A stretch of DNA of 64,000 nucleotides from NCBI RefSeq assembly GCF_025526975.1, contig NW_026515680.1, positions 124,001-188,000 of the forward strand. Direction: 5' to 3'. The notes beneath the pieces are model-generated. The model saw nothing but the letters and a program-made list of their open reading frames with translations, did no database searches and had not been told where the DNA came from. This document shows, piece after piece, positions 6,544 through 26,267 of this stretch (the first letter of the stretch is position 1; the number at the start of each line of letters is the position of its first letter). This DNA is from Fimicolochytrium jonesii (taxonomy: Eukaryota). The position numbers were made by a program, and so were the translations under genes.

Positions 6544-8719
6544 TTTTGGCGTGAGGTTTTGTTCTTGTGTGGTGGTGATGTATTCAGTGAGCGTTTGGGC
6601 GTGGACAGGGGGATGTCTGGAAGGTGGGGCCAGCTATATAAATAGCCGACAGATGCGTCTCTCCACATTTGCAATTGTCCGCCGATGCGGCGCCGATGGG
6701 GAAATGGAATGTTCTCAGATGTGGCCATAGTGACGCACTTCTTCTATTTGGAAGCTTGGCGTTCGATTACCGAACCGCGGAACTCCCGCCCGCTAGCATG
6801 TGGCTTGTGTTACATCTGAGAGGTGGATCTCGCCTGCGATGCCGTTCACTAATAACGGCGCGAGGACAATGTCGCTTTTGGTACATGGTATAGGCTAGGA
6901 TATCTGATGGTCGCCGGCAAGTATCTATCTTTTTAATCTGGTTTGACTTTGATTTGATGGTCCCTCCACACCCGAGCGAGAGACCTCTCCTCACATTGGA
7001 TTTGACATTACCACGCGTCATCACCACCCACCCAACTCCGACCTCTCCACGACGAGGATCAAGCCTCGCCCCCGTCAATCCAAGCTGGGCACTGGGTAGC
7101 CGTTTTGTTGTACATAGAGAGTTGTGGAGATGTCATCCACCGAAGAGCTTTTGAAGGGGCAGCCTTGGCATATAAACCTGGCGCCCGAGCCGTCACCGCG
7201 AGGACGTAATGTCGCTTGTGGCAGGCTTTTGGTGGTGCACCAGGTAGTACTTGATGGTCGCCGGCAAGTATCTATCTTTCTCACCGAGCAAGGCCGTGCC
7301 GCTGCCGTGCCGCTGCCGTGCCGCCGCCGCGCCCGAATTCTGAACCCGCTGCAGCTCAGGTATGGGGTGTTTTCGCTGGGTGTCGCAGAAGGGAGCATTT
7401 GGAAGACAACAGGAGCAGCACCGCATAGCGTTGTAAGGGTACTCAGATGTCATCCCACACCTTTCGCTAGTGTCTTTTCTACGACAGAGTCCACCGGCGC
7501 CAGTCAAGCCGTAGCTATAGGGACCCACCTTGCGTGCCTAAGTAGTTCGCGATTGGAGCCGCCGGGTAGGTCCCTCATATCTTGAAGTCAGACCAGCATA
7601 TGGAGACCAGCATCGTATTTATGCCTGGGATGGAGCCCCTCTTCATTGACATATCGTTGACGGACACTACAACATGTGGGCAAGAATCGAAGCGTCCGGA
7701 CCGTACTTGTGCTTCTCGAGTCAAAAAAAACCCCCGTCATGCCTTGCGAACATCGCGCGTACTTCCCCTGATATCCCAGCGATCTTCCCGAATGTGATCG
7801 AAATCAGTTTGATGGGAGGGTCGACTGCGGAAGATATCCAGCCCTGTGGATATGTTTCCAAACGTGAGGAGAGTGTTATGTACTCCCTACCCCGGCTATG
7901 CGCCGGAGGGTTCTCCTCTATGAAGGCAAAAGTTGGGTATTACAAGAGGCAGTGTAGGCGAGGCTCAGCAAAAAATCACTCAGGCAAAAGAACAAGCCCA
8001 GCACAAGCAACGCATCAAACCGTAACAAACCATAATCTTGCCAAATCACATTCGTCGAGAAAGCTACCTGGGAACCACTACGGGGCAAGCGTTTGCTGAA
8101 TGGTGAGCCCAATAACAAATTTACAGCTAGCCTTTCATTCGGAGCGGGCGTATCTTCGAATATCTTTCGCGGCTTAGTGGGATATAGTGGTCCCCGTCGT
8201 ACATTGTACATATACCCTCGTGAACGCAACAGAATATGAGCTCCACCTCGGTTGTCTTCATGGTCGAATGCAATGACTTCACATGCAAGCGCTCGAATGC
8301 GTCTGGTAAAAAGGGGAGGGATCCGAGACGAGTAGGTGGATGACCAATACCGAGCCTGACCGGACCGACGAAGTACGTTTAGAGAAGGACAGTCATAGGC
8401 TCGCATTGGAATAGTGGAAAATGTCCGAGGAGCGGAGTTGCGAGAAAAAGGAGGAAAGCTGTCGAAACCCCATGGCATCACGTAACAAACAGCTCCCGAG
8501 TGGCACACAGACAGGCCATCCATCTGCGCCCTCACACAACCCACATGCATTTCCACACCACATGCCCTCTGTGACATCTCCCCTCGCACAACTGCAGCAC
8601 TCTTACTGTATCCGACCACCGTTCATCCTTGTATCCCGCAGTCCGCTCTCGATTGATCGGACGAACACCCATAAAACCCCCACGCTTTCGCCAGCCGGCT
8701 TCGGTTCTTTTTTCTCACT

Positions 8720-10428
8720 ATGTCCAACATGGGTCTCGTAGTGAACATCCTCATATTCGGGGTAGCGGTGAGCATTCCCGCAGCGGTCAACTACGAAACA
8801 AAGGGCCAGCTGCCTGACCTCGCTGCTACAACATGCCTGCTGCTGCTTACGCTCATAGTGTTTCGCTTGCTCGGTGTGCCTACGCTCGTGGAGAGTCTGT
8901 CCCAGATTGACGAGGTGTGCAGCACACAACCTGAAGTTGTAGAACTGCAAAGCAAATTCGACAGCAAGCTTTTAGAGGAGGAGTGTGACGTTGTGGAATC
9001 GCAGGAAGAAGACGTGGAGGAAAATATATCAGTCTATGAAGAAGGGGAAGTGGTAGTAGAAGATGAGGCCGTAGAGGAAGCTACATCAAAAGTCGAAAGC
9101 AGCGTTGAACTCAGCGAGGACTCCGCCGCCGAAGAGCTTTCGGACTGCTCTACACCTGTCCCAGTCAGAAACCTCGAGAAGCGATTGGCACGCGCACCCA
9201 GCGACGTTTCCTCAGCCGACAGCGCCATCGCCGATATCCACGACCCATACATATGCCAGCTCCCAGCGCTCGAAGCGGAATTCATCTCGCTGGCCGATAC
9301 TAAACGATCACCTGAGTCATGGGAGACCATTCTTGCGCAGAGTTGGGGCAAGTTCTCGATCGAGATTCATCGACGGGTTGGCAGCCAGTTCTTGTTCCGG
9401 TACATTATGCATTTGGAGGCTACGCCTGAGGAGGCGATTGATCTGTTGGCGGATGTCACGCGGCGCCCTGTGTGGGATGAGCTGTGTGACGAGGCTGGGG
9501 TGGTGGAAAAGGTTTCTGACAGAACGACCGTTCAGGTAGGTTTGGAGATTGATTTGCGTGCATGTTCTCTCACATACGCATGGATCAGCGAGACTAATCC
9601 ACATCCCGTTTCGATCCGTAGTACTTCCGCACGAAAGCAGCATGGCCCACCAAATCCCGCTGCGCCCTCGTAGTCTCGTTCAACAAACAACTCTCACCGC
9701 GCCGCTACCTCAACGTCTCCAAATCCATTAACACACACCCCTCCTTCCACGCCAACTCCGCCGACGTCCGCATGATCGCCCACATCGCCGGTCAACTCGT
9801 CGAGCCGGACGCCGCAGGCCGCGACCGGATGTGCCGCGTCGTGCAGGTTGTCGATGGGGATCTGGGCGGATGGTTGCCGAAAAGCGTTGTCAATATGGTC
9901 ACCATCAACGCGATACCCGTGGGCATGCGGAAGGCTAACAAGATGTTGAAGGGGATTGAAGTTCAACGGGATGTTTCGGAGGTTATGACTGAGGCTGAGG
10001 GTGGATTTTATCAGGCTGGTAGCGATAGCGACGCGAGCAGCCAAACTACACCGGTGTCTGCACGCAAGGGCAGGATGAACGTAATCACTAGCAAGGCGAA
10101 AAGCTGCCAAACTACACCGGTGTCTCCACGCAAGCGCATGATGACGGCATCCGTTCCCATCTCGCCCGTGACTGCAATAGCAGCCAAAGCGGCGCACATG
10201 CAATCCGATACCATCGCTACTGTCTCCACCAGACCAACCACAGAACAACACACCGAATCATCATCACTCCCAACGAACAAAGCGCTGACCACCCGCACAA
10301 CCGCCCAAGCAATCCTCTTAAAACGCCCCAACGTCCTCCGCTTCATCCTCACCATCCTCCGGCGATCACAGCCGTGGATCATCGTATCGATCTTGCTTGC
10401 GATCGTCACCGGGCGATTCAAGCGATGA
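8720..10428 (+). CDS. START (StAR-related lipid transfer) domain membrane protein
   Basis: N-terminal hydrophobic helices, then acidic linker. START-type motifs 'DLLADVTRRPVWDELCDEAGVVEKVSDRTTVQ|YFRTKAAWPTKSR' and 'VDGDLGGWLPKSVVN'; intron ~9536-9620; C-terminal hydrophobic anchor. Confidence 0.82.
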
Positions 10429-12220
10429 GCTCGAAATACATGTCCCCATACCGCCCACCCAGGTCAAGGGCCCACGTATTCCCATTGACTGCTAGAGCAG
10501 CAAAACCGCCCCAAACCTGTCTAAGACGTTATATACCCTACTCCCAGCCAATTTTGAAAGTACACTACATTAGTATTGGTCGCGTCCCCGTCTCTGCGTT
10601 CCCCAGGTTCTCTTATTTTTGTGCGTCGCTTGGCCGACATCCTTTTAGAAGTTCTGTGAGGTATACTTGGCATGTATTCATTCAGTTACATGGCAATAAA
10701 AATGCAAGTTCTATGACTATGAATTAGGTTGCGAAGAAGGTATGAAATTGGTGAGCCAGGGGTGCTGAGAGGGAACTAAACTCTTACAGCCCGGCTCTAT
10801 CGACGAAAACGGAAGTGTGAAGATAATAGAGACCTTATGTTCCGCTCATATAGAAGCCGTTCGAAAATTGCGGCCACACCGTAACTGCTCCGCGACCGTC
10901 GAAGGCGAGTCGCGAGAGAGGCAAGGCATTCGTCCCGTTTTCACGGTCGTCCCCCCCACCGACGTAAGAAATCGATTCCCGCCGGAGCCCCATTTCAGCT
11001 TCTTCTCGCCATCGCGTGACTCGGCAGTCTGAAGCTTCACATTACACTTCACATTACACATTACACATATGGACGGTTCCGATGTGACGCTAGGATCGGT
11101 GGCATCAATTGACCACCTAGGCGCGCTCGCTTTGTGCCTCAACGTCCTGCTCCCTCAGATACCTCATCCTTTGTTGTGCATTCATGTCGCCCCTCAGTAA
11201 GCGCGTCAATCGCATCTTATTGTATGCCGTGAAAAAAAGAGGGAACTTAGCCTGACATTTCCAGCTGCATCAAAATCAATGGAAATCGCGGCACATAATA
11301 CACAAAACGAAAAGGAAAGGAGGAAAAGCCTGCAACAAACACAAACACCTGATGCGGGACTTACATCCTTGGGCTGGATGGTCTCCCTCCCAGCGGGGAC
11401 GGCGGCCACATTCACGTCAGACGTAAGAGCTCGGGTGGAGGCAAGCTTGATGCAGGATGTCGGTCGCGTCCATTGACCACCTGGGCGCGCTTGTCTTCTT
11501 CTCGTTCACCCAGACGTTAGCTCCGCCGGCTTTAAAATACCGGCATATGAACGACCGCGGCACAATGGCACCGGCCCCCACAGGGCTATTGTGATGAAGC
11601 GTTTCCGCTGCCGCAATCTCGTTAGGGTCGCGACGGCCGAGGCCACCAGCGACGCTTTACTGTGGGCGCCTCTCCATCGCAGCGGCCGGCCGTCCTCATC
11701 AAACATCTTATCCTTGGCGCAGGGAGAACATCCGTAGTTAACTTTTCGGCTCTGGTCTCCCGCTCTGGTCCATGAATATCACCGCATTGGCGCAAAAAAT
11801 GTCAAGGCACGGATTAATGCCAGGAAAGAGTTGCGTGATTGTGATTGCAATTGCTGCGAGCTCTTTTAGCAACTAGAATGTGGCAGTTTCTGCGTCTTGC
11901 ATATCCGTCCCAGCTCCGATACAATGGTTTCCTGCATCGTAGTAAGCGCATCTGCCTGATCATCGTGGTCGTCTTCCGGCTCGTCGGGATCCGCTCCTCC
12001 TCGCATGTTGTTTGTAACCGAGAGAAAAAGGCGGAATGAGGTAAGCCACGGCAAGGGCATGACATTTCGCCACCGTCCTCCAGCAAGCATACATTCCTGT
12101 ACAGTAGTGCACATAGCAACCCCATCGCCAACCCTTCGAAAGCGGCCCTATGCAAGAATAGATAGCGAGTAGAAATCCAGATTTTTCCTTGTGGTTCGGG
12201 AGAGCGATATTTGATCGAAT

Positions 12221-12840
12221 CTACAACTCGGCATCCCCGATTTTCCTCTTTACAGAATCCCGTACTTTGTTTTGCATGTACATTGAATGCACATAACGAT
12301 TGCCCCTCGAGTAGTCGGTCACTGAATGATGAAGAAGATCGGCTCGGAACAGGGTTAAGGTACCCACTTCCTGCTTCAGAACAACACCTGCATCGATGCG
12401 TTCAAAATCTCCCCCATCGCCGAAGTCGCCAAAGGTGTACTGAGTGGTGAAACCCTTGTCCTCCACATCGAAGTGGCAATCAACTGTCGGATTCCAAATG
12501 TGGGTATGTGATTTCTGCCAGACACCCTACTCCGCGTGTGTTCGATCGTATCGCACATTGAGAACAATCTGCAATGCCTACGTGAGGCAATGCTTGTCTC
12601 TGAGGTGGGAAATTACCGTCACAAAGAGGGCAATGTGCCAGCGTTCCAAGTGCGTGGCGCTGATCATCTCAGCTCAAGCAGATGCGAACCCTGCCATCAT
12701 CGTTGAAGGCTTCCAAAGGAACATAAAGACTTCTAATCGCAGCTCGGGCACGTCCACCTTGCTTTTCCGCGTGTACGAATCTTCACACTTAAGTACCTTG
12801 ATAGCGTTTGAAAGTGCCCGCCCGTTATAGAGCGCCTTGT
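12221..12840 (-). pseudogene. TET/JBP-family 2OG-Fe(II) dioxygenase, disrupted
   Basis: NPTVDCHFDVEDKGFTTQYTFGDFGDGGDFERIDAGVVLKQEVGTLTLFRADLLHHSVTDYSRGNRY: HxD at 12467-12475, GDF..GG, distal H and R. Same frame upstream carries in-frame stops. Confidence 0.75.
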
Positions 12841-14635
12841 TCTTCTTCTTCGTCAGATTACGGCAGTGGTCGTCGTACTGCCTCGATATCCTGTGCGGAT
12901 CGCCCCGTAATCGAACAACGGTTGCGTAAAAGAACAGCCGTCGCGGAAATAATCTTCACAACGTGTCCAGGGCCCTCTGCAAGGTCGCGCTCATCACCAC
13001 GGTAATGAGGAGGGTTCCCTTTCCCCTTGCGCTTCGTGGTGGCGGTGCGCAGGCCAGCCATGAGCAGGTCCCATTCCGCCGTCGTATCCAACTCCTCGTT
13101 GGCCCACCAATTGTAAGGAAACTTCTCCCCGGCTTCGAGCCATCCACAGACATCACATCAAACTTTACCAAACGAACGTTTCCTGATAACTCTGCTGGAG
13201 ATCTCGCCGGGGTGGTTGCAGCTGTTACTTCCGCCGGTGTACCGGGTTCTTCCTCGACAGGATCGCTGAAGAATGTGCAGAAAAACTGGGTGACGAGCCC
13301 TTGTTCCGTGCTTGCGCAGAGCACGGCGATGTCTTCGATGTTCTTGCCCAACACGGCCCAGGTGTGGGCTGTCGGGTAGGTCGTTGCGACATCCTGGGGC
13401 ATAGCTGCGTCAATGGTGGAAAGAACTCTCGCCTTGATCACCAATAGCATCGCATATGGGCAGCGCATTGTCATGGCGATTGGCAAGGCACTTTTTCGGC
13501 AATCTGCAATCTATCGATGGCGTTAATATCGATGATCTGACCGTTGTTTGCTTGGGCCACGAACGGCTCGTATGAATAGGGCTCGGATGGATCGACGTTG
13601 GGAATCTCATCATCCATGATGAACATTGTTGCGCGATCCACAAACCATCCATGCTCGTTCAGCTTAGTGTTTCTCTCGATAACGCTGATGTTATACTGGA
13701 CGGATGGGAGCGCTCTCGAGAATGGTATCTTGACGAAGAACTCGCCAACGATTTTCATAATGACCTTTCTTGAAAGGTGAAGTCCCGTTCGTCTCGTCAA
13801 CTGAAGATGACCTTGATGAAAGGAAGATTCCCTCGCACGATGACATCAACACGGCCGCGCTCTCATCCTTGCTAGAACTTGATCGAGCTCATATCGACAT
13901 CCACAAGTGTAGAATATTGGTTATCGCCGTAAATTGGTTGGTTGTGCTTGCATCGTCTTCTTAGCTAGCGCTCGTTTCCCTGACGAGGAAGCCGTCAAGA
14001 TCGTCGTTACCGGCCTCGTGATCGTTGCGGGTGCAGCCTGAGCTATGCGAGTGCAGGGGGACTTCGGCCCCTTTCGCTCAAGGCTGAGAGATGCTCTGAC
14101 CGTGTCGACCATCCATTGCTATCAAAGCAGGTATAGATCATCGGCAGTTGAGAACGATGTCGCTTCAGGAGAAGCTCGGTACCGATGTGGATGGTCCAAT
14201 AAGAGCGTCCGCTGTGACCTACTAGCTGGCCCGCCAGGTGTCGCAGCAGCCCCAGGCGCACCACAAGTTTTCCCCAATCGGACGATCTGTTGCTGCATTT
14301 CGGGCTTGGCGGCCACATTGCATATCGGAATTTCTCCGACAACATCGAGTTTGTGCGCTGTGGCAGAGAGGACAGTATCGTAGCTCGCGCTCCACGGTAA
14401 GAGCCCTTTTCTTGGCGGAGCTGATCAGACTTTTGAGCTCGTCGTCCGATGAGCACGACCCCATCCAATCTCCCGATCCCGCAATCTGGGTGATCGATCA
14501 AATAGGTGGAGTAGCGTTCAGAGTAGCGTTTCTCCTGGGCAGCAATGCTCTTGCTTTGCGCATGGCCCGTGCTGAATAGAAACTATGTTAAGCAACTCCA
14601 CCACAAACTTGAAGTTGTTGACCACAAAGTTCTGC

Positions 14636-14968
14636 TTACCCTTCTGTTTCGGGTTTAAATGCCGAGACGTGAATTATTGCGTCCGCAAAGTCGGACCACT
14701 GTTGTAGGATTTCTCTCGTGTCCTTGACGTCGTATCCGCAGTCATTGAGCGCTTCTTTGATGGATTTGAGGTAGATGCGGGGGTATTCCGCTTGAAGTGT
14801 CCAAGCTAGTCGCTCGAGACGGGCTTCATTCTCGCGCCTCTTCCTCTCGATTTCGGAGTCTTCGGCAGTTAGCTGCCGTCGCCCTTTTTTCGAGGAAACG
14901 CTAAAAGGGTTAATAGCCAAGGCTCCCTCAGCGCGGCGAGCAATGGCTCGAGGTTCCCTCCGAACCAA
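14636..14968 (-). pseudogene. Fragment with CUE-like ubiquitin-binding domain
   Basis: LAWTLQAEYPRIYLKSIKEALNDCGYDVKDTREIL fits the L..(M/E)(F/Y)P......I...L.....DV......L pattern. Confidence 0.5.
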
Positions 14969-17493
14969 GGCGGTGGTCTCGGCGGGCTGTTCCTCATCAC
15001 CGTCGTAGAATTCCTCCTCCTTATCATCACCCTCCTCTTTAACACGCGCAGGACTGTCGTCCTCATATTCTTCGACCCTTGATGCGAGCCCAGATCATGT
15101 ACCCGGGTCCATAGAGGATCGCAATCTTGGGGCTGCAAAGCCACGTAAGATAAAGGCAATGCTTGTCGTTTATGAGTGCATAAGGCACCGAGACCGAGAC
15201 AGCGCTTAATCCCGCGATCGGGTGCAGAATCTCTTCACCGGGCCGAAGAAGAAGCATGCCCCCCCCCCCCCCCCTCCCCCGCTCCCGGAAAGAGAGTGGG
15301 GGGGGGGGTGATTGCTCTGATCGTAAGAAGACGTAAGCGATGTGATTCCGCCATCCTGGTGTATACTGGTTGGTGAGGTCGAATTCTTGCAAAGTCTTCT
15401 ACCCGTCGGCGAGCGCGGGGTCCATGGACTTTTGGTCGTGCCATGTCGATAGCGTACCATTTGCGGAGAACGCGGGTCATCCTTTCGCTGGTCGGAGGAA
15501 AGCCCGTATCCTTGTTGAAAGACGGCCAGAATGGGCACTAGCTCTCCTTCTTCGTGGCCGTACACCAGGATATTTCCGGCCACCTCGCGGTAGCCAAGGG
15601 CGTCCTCCTCAGCGTTAGTGCGGAGATGGGCGTCCGCGGGGAGACCATCTGCTTCGGTGGGTTTCCTGCAGAGATTGCGCTTGACGTTGAAGTTGCTCAC
15701 GTAGATCTGCGTCTCAGCAGACCATCTGGCTAGCTCATTGGTCAAGCAGGCTCCGTACCGCTTTTCGTCCATGTCGCAATGGGCGCTGAAGAATCGTTCC
15801 ATCAGATTTGGCGTGGACACCATGGCAGTGTACGGTCCTGGCTGTCGCGTAGATGGCATGACGCAGAGTGGCTGTTCGAGATGTCGGTGACCATGACTTG
15901 CTGTGCTTGCAGATGTATCAAGCTTTGGCGATCAGAGTAAATCATCGGAACGGTCAGCCAATGAGGCTTCGATCGTGGATTGTGCTCGTAAGTTGTGAGG
16001 AATCTCGGGAGCTCCCCCTCCTCCGGCTCCGCCTCCACGGGGCGGAGCACCTGGACCGGCATCCCCACCGTTTCCGTCACCGTCACTCTCTTCATCCGAG
16101 GACGACTCTTCCATGTGCTTCTTTAAGTACGCGAGTCGTTTCTTCAATTTATCCCTCTCGTTTCGCTCGGCCGCGTCGCTGCGGCGCTTTGCTTCCTTCA
16201 TCTTTTCCTTCGATACACACTCTTGCTCTTATACCTCGACTCCGACACTGCCTTGCAACCCAGGTAGTCCGCCTTAACCATCAACGCCTCGAAAGACCCC
16301 TTCTTCTTCTTTGATCTCGAGAACCTCTCTTGCGTCGTCGCCAGATGCTTTGCCAGGTTTTTGTGGTTGTCTTTCCGGTACCGCAGCGTCGCAATCTCGG
16401 TCGCCACTCGCAATGCTTCTCTTACACGGTCGGGAAGTCACTCGCGGCTGCAGCGGAGGATGCGCGCGTCGAGCGCGTAGTTGGTTTCGAGGGTCCCGGC
16501 GGTGGTACAGCTGGAGGAAAGCTCGGCTTCAGAGTCTTGCGGGCTGTCTGCTTCTTCTTGCCGTCTTTGCCGTCCCCGCTCTTTCTTGCCACCGTTCGCC
16601 ATACTTTCGCGTATCGACTGGTTGTCTGGGTTACTGGAGTTGAGTATGGGAACGTTGGTCTTAGCTCTCTGGGGCGACTGTCAGACGTCTGTTGTTTTAT
16701 ACTTGCGGCGTTTCCCTCGCCAAACATTGGGGCCTGTTTTGTTGGAGAACGTCAGCCGTAAAAGTGGTCGGGAATATGACTGGGTTGAGTATGGTCCTGT
16801 GCAAGCGGGCACAGCCCTTGAACTGGAGCTCTTCTTCGGAATCTGAATTGGGATCGTATTCGGAATACGTGCGTCGTCGATGTGGTGAAAAGAACAGCAG
16901 GATGGTTCTTATGATTCGTAATGTCAAAATCCTCACATTTAACGAGAGCTGAGAGTTCTTGTTCGCCGGTATCTAGCACAATTGGGGATATGGGACGGCG
17001 GTGGCTACTTGAGCTAGCTCACCGACATCTTCTTTTCTGCCATAAGGAGGTATGCATGTAGCAAGTGATGCAGGAGGACAGCGAGCAGTTGAGATCGAGA
17101 TCGGGCTGGATCCTTCATCGCCTTGCTGATATTGATATAAAAGCCCGTCTGTTTCCCCGTGCTCCTAAAACCCGATGTGGCAGTGCTCTTTTCCAGCTTC
17201 CGTCGTCTCCGTCGCCACCGTCGTCCATACCAGCCGCTAGTGCCTCATCGACTAGCTGAGTAGCCGGCGTCGTGATGATCCACTCCATATGTGGTAAACC
17301 CTGTCCTCGACGTGCGGTTGCAGGCTCGTCCCTTTCCATCTGATCAAAGCCTATTCCCGTGTAGTCGGTTAACTCGTTTTCGAATGCTTGGGTTCGGGCG
17401 GGTGCTATACCAGGCGTACCAACCGGCTGCATTTACTGTCCCCTCGACAACCCTATTCTGGAAGGCCTGCAGCGCAGCGGAGAAGTCGCCTGG

Positions 17494-17587
17494 GCCCACA
17501 GCACTCCAGTGGTGTTGCAAGCCCAGAGCACTTCAGTGGTGTTGCAAAGCCCCCGGCACTTCAGTGGGGTTGCAAAGACCATAGCAC
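17494..17587 (+). repeat. Tandem 27-28 bp repeat, 3 copies plus a partial
   Basis: gcccacagcactccagtggtgttgcaa / gcccagagcacttcagtggtgttgcaaa / gcccccggcacttcagtggggttgcaaa / gaccatagcac. Confidence 0.9.
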
Positions 17588-19263
17588 GGTACGTTGGTTG
17601 TCAGATTCCATAGCTCTCCAAAGTCCTTAGGCATTCCTCGGGATTGCAAAGTCGTCTGCACCGCCAGGATCCTCGACAATCGCTCCCGATGGTCTACGCT
17701 TTCCCCCACAAGTCGGGCGTGATCGGAGAAAGCGCAGACCATTGGCAGACCTGCCGTATAGACGACGGGAACAGCGCATCGTCAGCACCCCACGCCCCCT
17801 CCTCTCCTTGAGTGATGTCGCCGCTCTCCGTCTCCCCATGCGAGCTGGCCTCCTCTGTCTCCATGCCGGAGATCTCCTCCTCCTCCGTCTCCTCGGCCTC
17901 GTCATCCTCACTGGGGGTATAGGTTGACCCCCCAAGCTCGCTTTCCCTGCTGGCAGATGGCGAGGTCACGGGGGCCGTCGACCTGGTGGTCCGGCGAGTT
18001 GGTGACACCGGTTCGGGGGAGGTTTCCGGAACAAACTCCGTGCCTTCCGACTCTGACTCTACGCTGGTCACCTCGTCGGACAGGACCCGTTCAAAACGAG
18101 TACGCTTACAAGGGGTGGGACGAGCCATGGTGAGGGTTGGTGCGGTGGAGAGGGGATGTGAAACGGGGAGTGTAGCGATCGCAGCGGAAGTGAGGAGGGT
18201 CGCGAACGGGAAACCAAGGTACGATTCAATGAGATCACAGGCATCCTCGATGGACTCTGCGCTAAGCAACCGCTCCTGCAGTGTTTGAAGCGGTCCCATC
18301 AAGCCTCGGTCTTTGATGAATTTCCAGAAAAGCTTGGCGAGTTTCTGGCAATCGGGTGCCGATGAAACTAGGCCTTCTCCATCCAAGCATTGGAGAAGCC
18401 CGCCGTCCCGGTAGCATTCTCATATGCCCTTTACCTCTGCAGTTCCTCCATTCGCCGACGCTCCTGCTCCAGGCGCTCCTTTAGAGCGCGGGTTGTAGCC
18501 GCCCTAACCCGGCGTCTTTCCTCTGCCTCAGCTTGCTCACGGGCGGCCTGCTCTCGCAATTCCGCCATGCGTTGGGTGACCTGCTCTAATTCGGCTTGGA
18601 GGGCGGCAGCCTCGGCCTCGGAGTCGTTGGTGTGGTGGACGTTATTGCTCATGTTGATGTCAAGTAAGATGATGTATTGATGTATGTACTGATCGGATGA
18701 GGAGAAGAGGAACTGAGAGAACCACCCCGCCTTTTATAGACTTTCCCCCAGGCCGCCGTCATTTGCCCCCGGATACAAGCCCCCACTGCTCATCATCCGG
18801 ACGGTCCTCATCCTCCAGGTTGTAGTAGCGTCGCAGTGTGTGGACACGTCATCAAGTACTTGGACAGCTCTTCCCTCGTAGATGCCGGCCGACGGCAGCT
18901 CACATCGGCTTTGTTTGAAACGCGCGTACGAGTTTACGTCGGTGAGGATAGCGCTATTTCCCATACTCATGGACGAGCTGAGGGCGTGTCCGAGTGCTGA
19001 TCGGATGGAGGCCCGAGGAGGGTGTGCCCGTTGTGCCGAAGCGCAGGCAAGGAAGCGGTACGGCGCAGGATGTGACGGCCTGTGTGTTGCTTGTGACGGC
19101 GCATCCACTTCTTCTTGTGTTTGCAGTTGTAGAATCCGAGTTTTGAGACTTCTGTGTCATGGGGTTCCACAGGGGGCCCGTCCTCTTCATAACCGGGCAT
19201 CCCGTAGACTTTGACATTCTCGTAAGAGTCTGGAGCAATGCTGTTGAGGGCATGGATCCGGTT

Positions 19264-19692
19264 CTCCTCCCAGTTGGCCAGGATCCGTCCACCGTAAATT
19301 GTCATCCGGTGAACCAACACATTGCGAAACTGTGCATGCGTCAGTGCTACCAGAATTCGCTTGTTCATTGGGATCAATGGATTAGGTTTTCGCTTGACCC
19401 AGACGTGGAAGTCAAACTTCGACAGTATGACTACGTCAGATTTGGCGAGGAAGTCGGCGGTGTGTTTGTGCATCAACTTGATCTCCTTTTCCAGTCTACC
19501 GCGGAGCTCCTGGACCTGCTCCCGTTCAGATTTGCATTCCTGTTGCTCTAGGCTTGTTTTGAGGGAGGGAATGCTGTGACGCAGTTCATCGTATCGCTGG
19601 CGTGTCTCAGCAAGGTCTTCTGCTGTGACAGCCCCGCTGCCCATGTAGACCGGAGCGAAGTGGTCTGAATCGTGTGTGATTACGATTGGCTC
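19264..19692 (-). pseudogene. Fanzor/IS607-TnpB-like RuvC nuclease fragment
   Basis: RYDELRHSI...ELRGRLEKEIKLMHKHTADFLAKSDVVILSKFDFHVWVKRKPNPLIPMNKRILVALTHAQFRNVLVHRMTIYGGRILANWEE follows the Fanzor2/TnpB pattern (R..I...V.E.H...A.FL....D.I.L.KF....M.......R.L....H..FR..L.....G..V....E). Zn ribbon and RuvC-III are absent. Confidence 0.72.
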
Positions 19693-19693
19693 T

Positions 19694-19950
19694 GACGATG
19701 ACAGGATCGGTCCAGATGTCGCCGACTCCCTGCAAATCCGTGACCAAATCCTCCTGGCCCGAGAACTCATACGTCATATGAGTGAAAGCATGGGGCGTAT
19801 TCCTATAGTTTTTAGTGTTGATACCGCCCCCGTTGGAGGAGTGACGTTCGAACGTTCCGGCAAGGTACTCGTCGAGTGCGTACCATTTGCGCTCGCTGAC
19901 GGATTCGGGAACTAGGGAAGCGGCCTCTCCCGTTGCAGTAGCTGCGAGGT
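19694..19950 (-). pseudogene. Alpha-kinase (eEF2K/MHCK family) catalytic fragment
   Basis: Frame without a start codon (not in the ORF track): WYALDEYLAGTFERHSSNGGGINTKNYRNTPHAFTHMTYEFSGQEDLVTDLQGVGDIWTDPVI, matching alpha-kinase 'RNTPQAFSHFTYE.S....LV.D.QGVGD..TDP.I'. Confidence 0.85.
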
Positions 19951-20333
19951 TAGGAGGCCCAGAGGAGCGTGTGGTGTCCAGTCGCTAGGGCTTTATTGCG
20001 ACTGGACGTTGGCAAAACCCTGTTCGGTGGGGGTTTCCTTGACATCGATGTTGGCGGCGCGGGTAGTTTTCGGGTTTTTATTGGGGCAGGCTGTTGATGG
20101 AGGAGGTGGGGGACGTGGTTGCTGCTGCTCCTGACAGGAGGAATCCAACACCTCATAATGCGCTGGTTGCTGGCAAGTGATGAAGACATGGCCGATGGCA
20201 TATCTGGCCAACTGTAGCTCGTTCCGGGTCACGGTGGCGGGCCAGAGCTTCATGTAAGGAAGAAAAGTATGACGTCAACGGCTTATTGATAAACGTCTCA
20301 TGGCTCAGCATCGTCCGTACTTCCTTCCGTCGT

Positions 20334-20558
20334 TCACGCCGTTCGTTTCAGTTCAGCTATCTCTTCCTTTAGCTTTGCGTTCTCGTCTTCCAAAATCTTA
20401 AGTCTCTCCGTATGTTCCTTTACCTTTGCGTTCTCGTCATCCAAAATCTTAAGTCTCTTCACAACAACCGTATGCATCTCACTAATCATACTGCCCATTT
20501 GATGATCGGCAACAGACGCATCCGAACTTGCTCGGAGGGGACAGCCGCTCAACATCAA
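20334..20558 (-). CDS. Short coiled-coil ORF with internal 51-bp duplication
   Basis: KRLKILDDENAKVKEHTERLKILEDENAKLKEEI; duplicated tttgcgttctcgtc(t/a)tccaaaatcttaagtctct. Confidence 0.35.
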   Translation of the reverse strand: MMLSGCPLRASSDASVADHQMGSMISEMHTVVVKRLKILDDENAKVKEHTERLKILEDENAKLKEEIAELKRTA

Positions 20559-21136
20559 AGGTTCGCGACGCAGCTGGTCAATGGAACCGACGAGTCGCAG
20601 AAAATAGCTCCTCCACTTCCGCTCCGATTACATGTCAACCCCACTGCGGATACACCTGCCAGGAAAAAAAAGCTCACCGCGTCTGCAGCACACTTCGCTC
20701 GAATGGCTCATAATAGCTTGTCAAGTACGCCACGCACCCCAATGACATTTCCTTCAACAGCATGAGTGCGGTGAAGGGCGGACGTCGGTATGCGACGTGT
20801 AATCCGTAGCACACTCCGAATCCAAATCCGAAGCAACTCAGAGGTACTGTTGACCAGTAGAGTCTCTTATGCTTGAGTTGCGCACGATGCGAAAGTTGTG
20901 GCAAACTTGGCAACATTTGCTGCAGATGTGCTACACGAGAGGGGATGCCTTGCCGGAACACCTCCACCTTAACTTGCAGTCTGGTGGCCTCATAGGCATG
21001 TCAGTTGGAATCGTAAAAGAAGTGGTTTCCGTTGACCAAGTCGACCCAGTAAAGGACAAAGTGATGGGCACGCGCTCCGTTTGAGCACCCTCGGGGTCTT
21101 GTATGGACGGATGATGGCCTTCGTGGCGTAGTGCAT

Positions 21137-21805
21137 ACCGCCCATCCCGAAACAATCGTCACGCTTGTCCATGGACACCTGCGACAGCACGTCCATGTCG
21201 GTCAAGGTGATCCTCTTGATTTCCTCATACAAGACTCGTGTCCCGCCGTCAATTTTGATTCCCTTGGGAACAATGCAAGAGATAAGCTGGCAGCGGAACT
21301 TGTACGTCTTGGATGCCGGGGGCGGGGCGAGAGGGGTGTCGCGGCCCACATCGTACGCCGGGTCGCTGACGTCGTAGGCGTTGCTTCTCGGATCCCTCTG
21401 AAGTTGGCGTACAAGACGCATGTCGGTTACCCTCAGCGTCTGCCGTGCCGCATGGAACATGGGCAGCCAGGCGTCCGTTAACAGCGAGATGAGCATATCT
21501 TCCGCTCCCACCTGAAGGGCCTCGAGGGCCCCCGGCTGCCACATGTGCGGGTCCGTCAAGCTCACATTGTTGTCAAGTTCGCGGACAAGACGGCCGAATG
21601 GAGCCCGCGGGATAATGGGCTCCGTTCGGCGCTGCTGCTGCCGTATTTCCCGTAGAGCAACTGATAAACAGGTTGATGGAGACGGAAAATGAGATGCCTT
21701 GCTTTCGCTTTCAAATCGGAGCAAAAGAAACAAAAGCAGAAGGATACTCACGAGTTCCAGACGATAACGACAAGGACGACCCCCACGACCCCCGCGACCT
21801 CGACG
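21137..21805 (-). pseudogene. Divergent histone H3 fused to an eroded histone H4-like domain (intron 21751-21661; 1-nt deletion before the intron)
   Basis: RPCRYR(P)GT|LALREIRQQQRRTEPIIPRAPFGRLVRE..WQPGALEALQVGAEDMLISLLTDAWLPMFHAARQTLRVTDMRLVRQL is an H3 fold. Downstream in frame: ISCIVPKGIK..GGTRVLYEEI-KRITLTDMDVL..CFGMGG, resembling H4 IQGITKPAIR..GGVKRISGLIYEET..KRKTVTAMDVV..LYGFGG. Confidence 0.8.
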
Positions 21806-21994
21806 TCAATGTTTCGACAGCCACCTACTTGCACATCGGGCACCTTCCAAGTGCTTCATTGTCTTGGAATAGCAAGTTCTGGAAGCCTCCTCTGCCTCGA
21901 CCTCCGCGACGACCTCCGCGACGACCTCCGCTCCATGATGATCGTCAGGTCCCTCTTCATCGCCTCCTGATCGGTACGCATGGCCTTCAGGTTG

Positions 21995-22056
21995 TCACCA
22001 AGCTCCTGTATGGCGCTGGTCATGTTCACCAAGCTCCTGCATGGCGCTGGTCATGT
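21995..22056 (+). repeat. 31-bp tandem duplication that frameshifts the minus-strand coiled-coil ORF 21995-22336
   Basis: tcaccaagctcctg(t/c)atggcgctggtcatgt x2. Confidence 0.85.
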
Positions 22057-23116
22057 TCGCGAAGGTCTGCATGATGTCGGAGGATGCAAAGGCCCGGAGC
22101 TGATCCACCGCCGCGAGGACCTCTTTCTTGTTTTCGATGATTTGTGCCAACAGCTCGGTAGTATTCATTGTCAGCACGTCGAAATCCCGCTTGGTCTGGT
22201 TCCGGAGGGATTCCATCGCCGCAAGCATCCTGGCGGCACTCGTCGCCATCTTTCTTATCATTTCCTTTTTCTCGTTCGATGTGTGGGTGGCGAAATCATC
22301 TGAATCTTGCTTGATATCCTCCTTGTGCGCTTGCACTCCTCCCGTACTTTGTTCAGGATGGTCAGGACCTTGTCCTCCACAAGACCGCCGAGGTTCCGTA
22401 CCATGGTGCGGAAGTACACGAGCGCCAGGGGAGATTTTTACCGAACAACCTCAGCCGCCGTGGCTAGCAGGCGGAGAGTTTCCTCACGGATCGCGTGCAT
22501 ACGGGCGCGACGTTCAGCCGCCTGCCATTGCCTGCGTTCTTCTGCCGCTTGCTGTGCCTCGTGGAGGAGGGCAGTGTCTTAGCCAGCGCAGCTTGAGCGC
22601 TGGCGGACGCGGTCGGAGGGTGTGAAGACAGATTATCTTTCACCAGCATCGATTTGGGTTTCGTCACCCACCCCGCTCCGAATCAACATCAGGCCAAACA
22701 CAGTGAAGCGAAAGGATGAAGGTGAACCCCAAGGAATGCATCCTCAGAATTAACCTTCCTCCGTCCGCTCATCCGGGCCTCCTGCTGCCGAATGTCGGTA
22801 GGTGTGGGAGGTAGAGGTGGGAAACGATCGACTTCCAATTGGGTTTTCGGGAACTTCAGCGCAGCGTTTTTAACCCAAAGCCCCCCCCCCCCCTCCATCC
22901 TGGATCATAAGTTTGCATACGTGCAAGCCTGAATACATAATAATTGCAGGTAGATGCGTGTGTGAAATCCGCATCCCGATTGATCAGTTGAAGATCCGGC
23001 TCGGTGATCTTGAGATGGCCCAGCTCTCCATGCTGAAATAGATTCGGGTGATTCGCTTTGTCTTCATCTGTCCACTTCAGATCGGCTTGCCGGCCCTCCC
23101 CCCTCGCCGAATGTCG

Positions 23117-23458
23117 TCAGAACATTCGAACGAGGGATACGAAGCACCCATTACATATGTGATGGGTGCCACACGAGCTGACAGTGCGGCACGAGATCCA
23201 AGTGCCGCATATGCAACAATTATGGTTGCTGCGTCCCGGGTTGAAGTAAATGGGCCAGCGGTCCCTAAGAGAAACAGTCAATACCCGTTTATCAGTTGGA
23301 TTACCCCTTCGCCACACCTACCGACAAATGGCACAGCGTGGTTGCCTATGCAAAAAGGTCACCATCTCCTGGACGATGCACGTGCGGCAGTAGAGGTGCC
23401 CGCACCGACCGCAGTGGTTACCGGGGTTGGTTAGACACACGGGACAGGTTGGGGGCAT
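23117..23458 (-). CDS. Small C3HC4 RING finger protein with a second partial RING-like motif (intron 23321-23265)
   Basis: Spliced product MPPTCPVCLTNPGNHCGRCGHLYCRTCIVQEMVTFLHRQPRCAICR|DRWPIYFNPGRSNHNCCICGTWISCRTVSSCGTHHICNGCF; intron gtaggt...attgac...ttag. Confidence 0.75.
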
Positions 23459-26267
23459 TTTGTCGGTGTGGTGGATGTTGAAGAAGAGGGGTGTGAAGTT
23501 GACTGTTATGGGGACGAGAGTGGAAGAGTTGGACAGCCTGACTTTTGGACAGCTCGAGTCGGGGGAGTGTTATCCTTGTATCGGCTCGGGAGCATGACTT
23601 CCTTGATGTCTCTCCTCCCCACTCGGTATGGTCGGCCTGTCTGAGGTGTCCAGGCTTTGCAACGGGCCCTGCCCCTTGATTGTGTCCGTGTCGTGCGTAA
23701 GCTTCCCCCCCTTATATTCTGCTATTTGCTCCCTGATTGTATCAGCTGCTCGCTGGATTACGAACGTGAAGACATCTGGGGTGTCGGAAGCCCATCGTTG
23801 CCTATGGTCGGACTGGTTGAATTAGTGCTGAGCCCTTGCACGACGTCGGGCCTTTGACCATCGTCCCTGCGCGGCCGTTTCCTGGGTGGACCAAGTTCGT
23901 CCGACGATCGTTCCTATGAAGTAACAACGTGAGCGATTGAGATGTTGGCCATGAACACCGTGGTGCTCCGATATGCGTACTGAGGTAACTGTTCTCGCTC
24001 TGTGGGCGGAAGGCCGATGTCGCTATTGCACTGAACGCATCGCTGCATGCCATCTGTCGCTGTTCTCGAAAATATCCTCGTCCTCGTTGATGACCTCGGA
24101 CGAAGGGTAACGAAATCCCTCGACAACCGTGTCCTGGAAGGACACGCCCGGGTGCTCGACCGTGGAGTATACGAAGGTTCCGCAAGTTCTCGAGATGTTC
24201 TGAGGGTCTGGCATCCACTTGATTTCCAAGTCTGTGAATGCTGTTTCCTTCTTGCGAGCCGCCTGCAAGTCCGCTGTGCGGAGCCCCTGATGTTCCCTCA
24301 GTAATGACCACATCGTGGTACAGATGAGCCCAGGATTGTAGAACCTTCCTAGATTCACAAAGCGATGACCTGGGACGAGGAGACTCCGCATGGATCTCAT
24401 CGGCAGGTGCCAGGTCGATGTGTGAAGATACTCTTAAGGGCGTCTTGAGAGAATATACGACCATGTCAATGTGATCCACTGACGGATCACTGGGCACGAG
24501 AGCAATTCCAACATCGGCGGGTGTCCGAGGTAACGATCCGTTATGACCGAATTCAGCTTGTGACCGAGGAAAGCCAGTTCGAGCAACGGGAAGACGATGC
24601 CGGTGTACTTGTACCATACCTCCCCTTCGGGCTCAACCTTTCCCGAGGTCACATAAGTCAGGAAACTTTCTTTCTGCCAAGTTTCAGATATTTCTGCGCT
24701 TGCTTGACGAGTCCTGCATTTGCAACCCGAGACGGACTCACTCGCAGAATCGCTGGCACATACCCAGGGACGCTCCTTCTTCACAACAGCATCGCCGCCT
24801 GTACCGATAAGCGTGGAAAGTGCCCAGAAGTTGTCGCCGAAAAGCTCCCATAACGCTTCCCGCTGCTTGTGGGTCATCAGCTTGTGGAGGCGTAATTTTG
24901 TCAGATGCGAGATGTAACGTTTGAGCTCGCTGAATGTGTCTCCGTCTAAGTTGGCGAGCGAACGGATGCACTTCCCGCGAAGGCGACCAATGGTCGCGAT
25001 GTCTTCCGAAGCGATGATGAAAGACCTCACGGCGTCTCGATTTCGTCGGCACACCGCAAGGGCGCGGCGGCGGTGCGACTGGCTCGGGGGTACTGTCCTC
25101 ATGAAGGGGCGGCGTCTCCTGAGTAGGCAGAGCATTCGGTTAGAGGCAAGTGAGGTCATTTATGCGCGACTAACGTGCCTACCGAGCGTTGCTCTTCCTT
25201 TTCCTTTGAACTAGGACCGGTGGTCGGACCAGCGGCTCGTTTACCCTTCCCCTTTGCGAGCGTGGCAAGAGTGGTGGGGGTAGCAGCGGAAGTATGAGCC
25301 ATACTGAGTGTTATGGCGAGTGTAAGGAAGTGCTTATGGAGGGAAGCGACTGGTGGAACTCATGACATGCGGTATCAAAGGCCCAGGGGAAGAGAACGCT
25401 TTTTGCAGTTGTTAGACCGCGTTGTCCCCACCAATTTTTTCGCTGCAAGCGCTTGAGAAGTAGCGCTTGAGACGTGGTGGAGAGAGTGCATAGCTTCAGC
25501 CGCTGGCTGTTGCTGGAACAGACAGCCCGATTGAAGTTCAGAATGTGCTTGGAAGGGGAGGCCATCCGCCTGTCGGTATGGAGTGTGCCAACGGGCGTAC
25601 AAAGCGGGACACAGTCTTGGTTGAGGAATATTCGACCGAGAACCTCTTGATGCCCCGATCGATCGCACAATTGACCGTAGGAGCGCTGCGTCATGGCGAG
25701 CGGTCAGAGAGATATTGTAATGGGTCTCTCCAGCGAGGACGGAGAAACGTTGGATGGACCGCCCGATGTAGATGAATTTTATTGACTGACACCTGTCGAA
25801 AGTTGCAGAGTGAGGCTCGTGTTTCCAAGAGGAGCAACAGGCTCGTGGGGTCGTTGTCTGGGAGAGCTCTCCCTATAGTTCTCCCGGTCGAGAGGGTGTT
25901 CAGATAGAGGGAGAAGTATCGCTATGGCTGCCAGTCGGTCGTAGATCGGTCTGAGATGGGGTTGTTGCGAAGGCCATCATCGAGAGGGGGGAGCCACTAT
26001 TGAATGCGAGGTCGTGTGCCACATGCGCCACGCCCGCGCCACTCGCTGTGGCTTGTTTCTCCCTTTCGCCTCTTTCCGCCCTCCCGCTCTGTGCGGTCCC
26101 CTTCTGGCTGGAAGTTTTCTGAACACCCACCCACCCCCCTTGGAGACTCATTGGACCGCCGCATACGGACTCATAGTGCCCACCTGCAAGGCTCCAGTAC
26201 TCCTCCCACAGAAAAGTCATAAGCGGGTCTATCTACAGTCCCTGGTTATCACAACACAGTCGCAACA

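Follow-up and report, generated by a model that had tools for sequence, protein, structure and literature searches.

A broken, divergent histone H3 gene with a long in-frame tail in a decayed gene block of the chytrid Fimicolochytrium jonesii

A decayed gene block in an otherwise ordinary chromosome

Fimicolochytrium jonesii is a soil chytrid. We analysed a window of 64,000 nucleotides from its contig NW_026515680.1 (positions 124,001 to 188,000; positions below are those of the window) and found it to be ordinary fungal chromosome, with genes for GAPDH, a START-domain protein, Cbf5 and polymerase gamma, with the exception of a stretch at about 10.7-25.9 kb (Table 1). All 16 segments recognised within this block by a codon model, which had been trained on ten host exons, were located on the minus strand, and several of them contained frame changes. 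The mitochondrial polymerase of the window was 100% identical to an NCBI protein of F. jonesii, followed among the matches by Powellomyces, Spizellomyces and Geranomyces. The GC content of the block was 0.546, compared with 0.554-0.573 in the flanks, and canonical introns were observed in several of its genes.

Table 1. Coordinates of the block, of the remnants within it and of the parts of the histone H3 gene.
Feature	Position	Strand	Evidence
Co-oriented decayed block from START-domain gene to Cbf5, about 15 kb (limits approximate)	10700..25900	-	codon model
2OG-Fe(II) dioxygenase remnant, TET/JBP-like	12224..12526	-	PHROG 61, E 2.3e-5
SprT-like metalloprotease fragment	17017..17244	-	Pfam PF10263, E 4.3e-4, under cut-off
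TnpB/Fanzor-like RuvC-lobe remnant, linked through a frame change to the kinase fragment	18970..19690	-	ESM Atlas
Truncated alpha-kinase fragment	19679..19903	-	Pfam PF02816, E 4.3e-20
Next frame: H-x2-L-x2-V-D-x7-FYDS (21063-21007), TGA (21003-21001), 108-codon frame	20677..21075	-	weak Ulp1/SENP likeness
Coding-type continuation past GMGG to the frame change near 21075	21071..21136	-	GC3 0.84, 19 codons
Claimed H4 part; likeness to H4 helix 3 and tail only at 21226-21137	21137..21301	-	pairwise only
In-frame Pro/Asp-rich linker	21302..21397	-	GC3 0.84, coding-type codons
Divergent histone H3 fold, alphaN to alpha3, exon 2	21398..21660	-	Pfam, PDB, AlphaFold, fold search
Spliceosomal intron, 91 nt, GTGAGT...CAG (predicted)	21661..21751	-	sequence
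Exon 1 remnant, RRGRGGRGGRPCRYR..GT, reading frame shifted by one base relative to exon 2	21752..21805	-	sequence
Frameshifted coiled-coil-like coding stretch upstream (same gene or neighbour)	21887..22428	-	codon model
RING-finger gene with intron 23321-23265	23265..23569	-	Pfam PF00097, E 9.6e-5, over cut-off; intron pattern

The frame that adjoins the kinase fragment (268 codons, 19773-18970) resembled IS200/IS605 TnpB clusters in the ESM Atlas, with feature scores of 0.91-0.93 and TM values of 0.60-0.72; the features and the predicted-structure TM are one source of evidence and not two. No match to this frame was returned by Pfam, NCBIfam or the PDB. It looks like a Fanzor-type remnant, in which the third catalytic Asp seems, by eye, to have been replaced. 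Frameshifted pieces at 12224-13845 (minus strand) were observed to end in a TET/JBP-like dioxygenase with an HxD, a distal His and an Arg, and the Pfam Tet_JBP match of the dioxygenase remnant (E 0.067) remained under the cut-off. An acidic coiled frame at 14636-15094 (minus strand), ending in a three-helix stretch that appears CUE/UBA-like by eye and followed by an intron, had no family match. Short tandem duplications were also observed in the block at 17494-17575, 20364-20458 and about 22000-22060, with spacings of 27, 51 and about 28 nt, respectively, the last of these putting the upstream coiled-coil gene out of frame.

We found no terminal repeats (TIR) and no target-site duplication (TSD) for the block, both of which decay could have erased, and neither a transposase nor a Rep-helicase was present in the 114 frames scanned with Pfam. 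Ends of the IS3EU type (TAYGG) were considered as element borders and proved uninformative, being too frequent. Viral hallmarks, including capsid, polymerase and packaging ATPase, were absent from the same 114 frames and from the 19 frames compared with PHROGs and NCBIfam. The first-pass annotation had called the histone gene element-encoded, and an element-borne origin is indeed probable because of its neighbours (TnpB/Fanzor, alpha-kinase, dioxygenase, SprT-like and RING); the single orientation, the introns and the host-like GC are further context in which a mobile element is the likely source.

The histone H3 fold and the breaks in its gene

The H3 half of the gene is genuine and comprises a complete, divergent H3 fold, in agreement with the first-pass annotation. 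It matched Pfam PF00125 (Histone) with E 4.9e-20 and the PDB with a best E of 3.4e-15, with H3/CENP-A chimeras in first place and Cnp1/Cse4 also among the best. Using an alignment of 82 rows, AlphaFold modelled residues 1-90 at a pLDDT of 89-97 (a single-sequence prediction, with a pLDDT of 34, was uninformative), and the top matches in a fold search with this model were H3 and CENP-A chains aligned over 87-93 columns. The NCBI record of the gene contains only an 89-aa partial model.

A total of 37 of 87 residues were identical to canonical H3. Residues E97, H113, R116, T118, D123 and L126 are kept in this alignment, and from these we infer that an intact fold would pair with host H4. Those altered include K56, K79, K122, R63, R83 and C110, the last being a proline, and because of this proline and the loss of both R63 and R83 entry into a nucleosome would have been doubtful even before the gene decayed. 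Loop 1 is two residues longer than in canonical H3, and three further substitutions were observed (Q68G, F84W and T107A), the third at what we take to be the diagnostic threonine of CenH3.

Both the GT-AG intron and the 1-nt frame error near 21760 that had been claimed for the 5' part of the gene are present in the sequence. Exon 1 reads RRGRGGRGGRPCRYR, contains an RGG stretch and is frameshifted relative to exon 2 at that point, and a TGA (21808-21806) stands immediately upstream of the RGG stretch, so that the loss of K4/K9/K27 proposed in the first pass is no more than a possibility. A frame change near 21075 and a stop at 21003 follow downstream. With these four breaks the gene was rightly described as a pseudogene, and no functional protein is expected from the current copy. 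The coiled-coil-like stretch further upstream had no family match in the Pfam scan of 114 frames.

The tail behind the fold

The H3 fold, the linker and the claimed H4 stretch lie in a single open frame that ends with a stop at 20990. Its codon use is of coding type, with a GC3 of 0.70 in the fold, 0.84 in the linker and 0.73 in the H4 part. The open frame and this codon use bear out the earlier claim of a linker of about 30 residues followed by a further stretch in the same frame. The claim built upon it, that the gene is an in-frame H3-H4 doublet, was not supported, because the C-terminal segment gave no significant H4 profile match, a test that had been set beforehand, and because coding sequence continues beyond the H4 end. 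Neither Pfam (0 matches) nor the PDB (0 matches at E up to 10) recognised the tail, and hhalign of the tail against H4 returned a probability of 0.6% (E 0.092). The 8 sequences of an H4 profile came from 11 viral-contig loci chosen for an H4 motif, three of which were dropped as chance matches. The frame with the tail scored E 5.4 on this profile (rank 4 of 1772 window frames), its best domain reaching 1.0 bit, while the positive controls, the H4 half of a doublet (P0265) and the H4 of a quadruplet (L072), scored 52.9 and 15.0 bits, respectively. On an 11-sequence profile, containing the 8 viral-contig H4s, canonical H4 and two repeat H4s, the tail received -2.8 bits compared with 6.2 bits for the H3 fold itself. 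Genuine repeat H4s have helix 2 intact and reach 15-53 bits on the H4 profile, neither of which holds for the F. jonesii tail.

Several of the records used here have features of their own. L072 carries at 7254-8864 a metagenome H2B-H2A-H3-H4-type quadruplet with an acidic tail, located beside asparagine synthetase-like and RING genes, while P0265 is an H4-H3 doublet of 238 aa in an ENA record of 905 bases. Three of the viral-contig H4 genes (L005, L008, L011) have long non-canonical N-terminal extensions.

All four H4 landmark peptides named in the first pass were found in the sequence, and only the segment at 21226-21137 rose above chance. The front two, aligned to H4 residues 20-64, obtained a score that was reached by 978 of 5000 shuffles (p 0.2). 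The last 30 residues were identical to canonical H4 at 12 of 30 positions in a pairwise alignment with a score of 44, which was reached by 6 of 5000 and 1 of 5000 shuffles (p about 0.001); their match ranked first, beating 627 of 628 window segments, and also beat 1332 of 1333 polymerase segments. One of 184 viral-locus segments reached a score of 44 against H4. A score of 53 against H4 was observed for the viral-locus segment L006. When the same 30 residues were compared with three near-canonical viral-contig H4s their scores were reached by 28, 267 and 1217 of 3000 shuffles, and with a doublet H4 by 888 of 5000. Free long gaps added nothing to the H4 alignment (9 and 11 of 5000 shuffles), and in the gapped alignment about 22 residues of helix 2 are absent between YEE and KR. 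With the front part at chance level and no gain from long gaps, the likeness to H4 is confined to its last third at most.

The AlphaFold check proposed for the fused frame upheld the H3 fold and yielded for the tail one low-confidence helix at residues 141-166 with no helix-loop-helix, the pLDDT there being 43-64 in a region that the alignment did not cover. A predicted complex of the H3 fold with the tail scored 0.09 and was not used as evidence. Taken as a whole, the tail is probably not H4.

The tail exceeds H4 in length, since coding-type sequence does not stop at the presumed H4 end. In the last 29 codons of the open frame (to 20990) GC3 falls to 0.31, and the codon model switches to the next frame near 21075. 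The H-x2-L-x2-V-D-x7-FYDS motif found there has the spacing of the catalytic hairpin of Ulp1/SENP proteases, in which a His-Asp strand pair ends in YDS. The score of an independently seeded Ulp1 profile on this motif was reached by 8 of 2000 shuffles, and that of an H4 profile on the same sequence by 46 of 2000, while hhalign of the motif against Ulp1 gave a weak E of 0.11. No Pfam or PDB match to Ulp1/SENP (Peptidase C48) was obtained from a read-through of the tail with X. The flanks of the motif were negative in 10 of 10 tests (best 382 of 2000), and the downstream Gln and Cys motif was not matched. With a wider Ulp1 profile the motif was the best match in the window, a result that we discounted because three rows of the profile had been fetched by that spacing and two were badly trimmed. 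The claimed H4 stretch itself was also considered as a SUMO protease, a reading that pairwise comparison with 7 frames of L013/L014 did not support. The tail has about 170-240 residues, and our leading guess for it, for which one 20-residue motif is the basis, is a decayed SUMO-protease-like domain.

Relatives, possible origins and meaning

A search with the fused protein returned three matches, every one of them to H3 only. No relatives of the fused protein were found in viral or metagenome contigs, and none of the kinase fragment in viral contigs. None of the best 150 of 4705 representative matches extended beyond residue 119 into the tail, none of 67 metagenome H3 loci had a neighbour or a tail in common with the F. 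jonesii gene, and tail residues 92-190 had no match in the ESM Atlas. The long top matches, considered as relatives, were instead merged animal and plant histone gene models. Seven 'multi-histone' records (P0127, P0129-P0134) look like models merged across animal histone clusters, and entries of this kind could lead to an overestimate of how many eukaryotic histone doublets exist.

In a 58-row tree, in which the bootstrap was unsettled and long-branch attraction is possible, the H3 was placed on a long branch with metagenome H3s and separated from canonical H3 by a 96/89 split. Two repeat H3s (P0265, L072) and an H3 of Geranomyces variabilis were observed on the same side of this split. AU tests on a 27-row tree rejected a pairing with canonical H3 (p 0.0006), so that the earlier view of the gene as something other than a simple recent copy of canonical H3 stands. 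A clade with seven CenH3-like records, which were labelled by our own judgement in a set without a chytrid CenH3, was weakly rejected (p 0.034), and sisterhood with the Geranomyces protein was not rejected (p 0.485), although the free trees did not place the gene beside it.

Geranomyces and Fimicolochytrium belong to one family. The G. variabilis H3 was observed in two assemblies (P0141, KAJ3131079.1 and P0277, KAI8584872.1), on contigs of 6.6 and 7.3 kb, as an intact protein of 218 aa with a Pro/Gly/Lys tail, and its fold is 48% and 47% identical to that of F. jonesii. Common to both are the motifs REI..QQ, RAPF, WQ..A.EALQ and HA.RQT and a Gly-rich tail without canonical lysine motifs. Among the 149 matches listed only the Geranomyces H3 has all four motifs, which were chosen afterwards. 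Unlike the broken F. jonesii copy it is intact, ends about 29 residues past the fold and has neither a fused domain nor an H4. It is probably the related intact H3 variant.

The reading that we favour, with somewhat better than an even chance, is a broken, divergent H3 fused in frame to a long and probably non-H4 tail, the likely cargo of a now-dead mobile element. A cargo-rich element would have brought in the block, including the H3 gene, and the remnant would later have decayed. Three precedents speak for such an element: H3 captured by hAT elements, TET/JBP together with alpha-kinase in IS3EU, and Fanzor in Spizellomyces transposons. Capture of H3-like genes by hAT has been described in the Dothideomycetes Pseudocercospora fijiensis and Pyrenophora tritici-repentis (PMC6710886, available part). 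There, as here, a broken H3-like sequence was found in a fungal genome in a mobile-element setting. The F. jonesii gene differs from those cases, as far as the available part describes them, in being far from canonical H3, in its retained intron and long in-frame tail and in its chytrid host, and the block yielded neither a hAT transposase nor hAT ends. TET/JBP genes are carried by fungal DNA transposons, and the TET+ IS3EU elements among these contain an alpha-kinase (PMC12730594, available part). The paper describes TET/JBP transposons from rusts, mushrooms and Pezizomycetes, and the word chytrid is absent from it. The F. jonesii block is alike in combining a TET/JBP-like dioxygenase remnant with an alpha-kinase fragment; it differs in having no detected transposase, TIR or 6-bp TSD, and in its histone cargo, none of which was seen among the TET+ transposons in the available part of PMC12730594. 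Fanzor genes have been reported, in the portions of the sources at hand, from transposons of the related chytrid Spizellomyces (PMC10432273) and from giant viruses (PMC10432273, bioRxiv 2023.08.09.552727).

Viral histone doublets and repeats offer a different comparison. Those described in the available parts of the sources include the H4-H3 of Marseilleviridae, the H3-H4 of medusavirus stheno and the repeats of Nucleocytoviricota (PMC9145170, PMC11222145), as well as viral and claimed eukaryotic doublets (PMC13520046). The F. jonesii gene is alike in having an H3 fold within a longer open frame and a weak tree affinity with repeat H3 halves, and it differs in having no detectable second histone fold, in its spliceosomal intron and in being broken. 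We consider it unlikely that the gene is a decayed single-chain H3-H4 doublet whose intact protein folded as an intramolecular H3-H4 dimer; its H4 half would have had to lose about 22 residues from helix 2 as well as portions of helix 1 and loop 1. What probability an H4 fragment keeps comes from the pairwise likeness of the last 30 residues to canonical H4; the candidate stretch also lies in frame after H3 and the linker, H3-then-H4 is the order both in medusavirus stheno (PMC9145170, available part) and in the quadruplet L072, and the tree split places the gene with the H3 halves of P0265 and L072. The joined fragments of kinase and TnpB nearby mean that deletions do occur in the block. However, a doublet would require three in-frame deletions in H4 and none in the H3 fold, and the missing profile support, the chance-level front landmarks, the drop in the match against viral-contig and doublet H4s, the coding sequence beyond the H4 end and the lone helix modelled in the uncovered tail all argue against it. 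A doublet can be reconciled with a remnant of an endogenous giant virus, in which a viral H3, with or without an H4 half, would later have gained an intron and decayed, and to which we give a lower probability again. A lone giant-virus capsid gene has been reported among fungal genes of F. jonesii (PMC13533422, in which the word 'histone' is absent), and a fungal endogenous virus region with introns and pseudogenes is described in the accessible text of PMC10640383, cited together with bioRxiv 2021.11.30.470311. Fanzor, RING and Ulp1-like genes are found in giant viruses too, and the H3 groups with metagenome H3s on a side shared with two viral-type repeat H3s, a grouping that may be due to long-branch attraction. 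Against such a remnant stand the absence of viral hallmarks from the frames scanned, the host-like GC, the spliceosomal introns in several genes and the viral contigs, in which neither the gene nor the kinase fragment had relatives.

A dead duplicate of the host CenH3, inserted among repeats and followed by an unrelated tail, is the least probable of these origins. Criteria for CenH3 include a longer loop 1 and the loss of Q68, F84 and a diagnostic Thr that is printed as position 118 (PMC8097292, available part). The F. jonesii H3 likewise has a longer loop 1 and lacks Q68, F84 and T107, with T118 kept, and the H3/CENP-A chimeras and Cnp1/Cse4 among its best PDB matches point the same way. However, such changes are common in fast-evolving H3, many of the best 150 matches having them, and the gene is broken and fell outside the CenH3-like set tested. 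A duplicate of CenH3 would also leave unexplained a long C-terminal extension, a coding-type tail of at least 170 residues.

Returning to the favoured mobile-element cargo, an intact H3 would have entered chromatin without K56, K79 and K122, and without K36/K37 as well if exon 1 is the tail. An altered H3 together with a TET/JBP-like dioxygenase would help an element to escape silencing. A chytrid element with its own chromatin kit, in which a giant-virus-type H3-H4 doublet or an H3-SUMO protease fusion accompanied Fanzor, TET/JBP, alpha-kinase, RING and SprT, has a small chance of being correct; if so, a fungal nuclear genome would contain a fused histone of viral style that has a spliceosomal intron, and intact relatives would be expected in Spizellomycetales.

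The weight of the find is modest, because this is a single dead copy and the capture of H3 by mobile elements is already known in fungi. The literature covered, with subscription papers mostly outside it, described neither chytrid variants of H3 nor a histone carried as cargo next to Fanzor. The intact Geranomyces H3 is a better target than the broken F. jonesii copy. Should intact copies have H3 fused to a complete H4 or to a protease, they would represent a selfish element with its own nucleosome part, which is testable, and intact fused copies, if they exist, would link giant-virus histone repeats to fungal genomes. The gene points to two things: strongly altered H3 genes that form a lineage among the Spizellomycetales, Geranomyces having an intact one, and a block of chytrid cargo that combines an H3 with Fanzor, an alpha-kinase and a TET/JBP-like enzyme.
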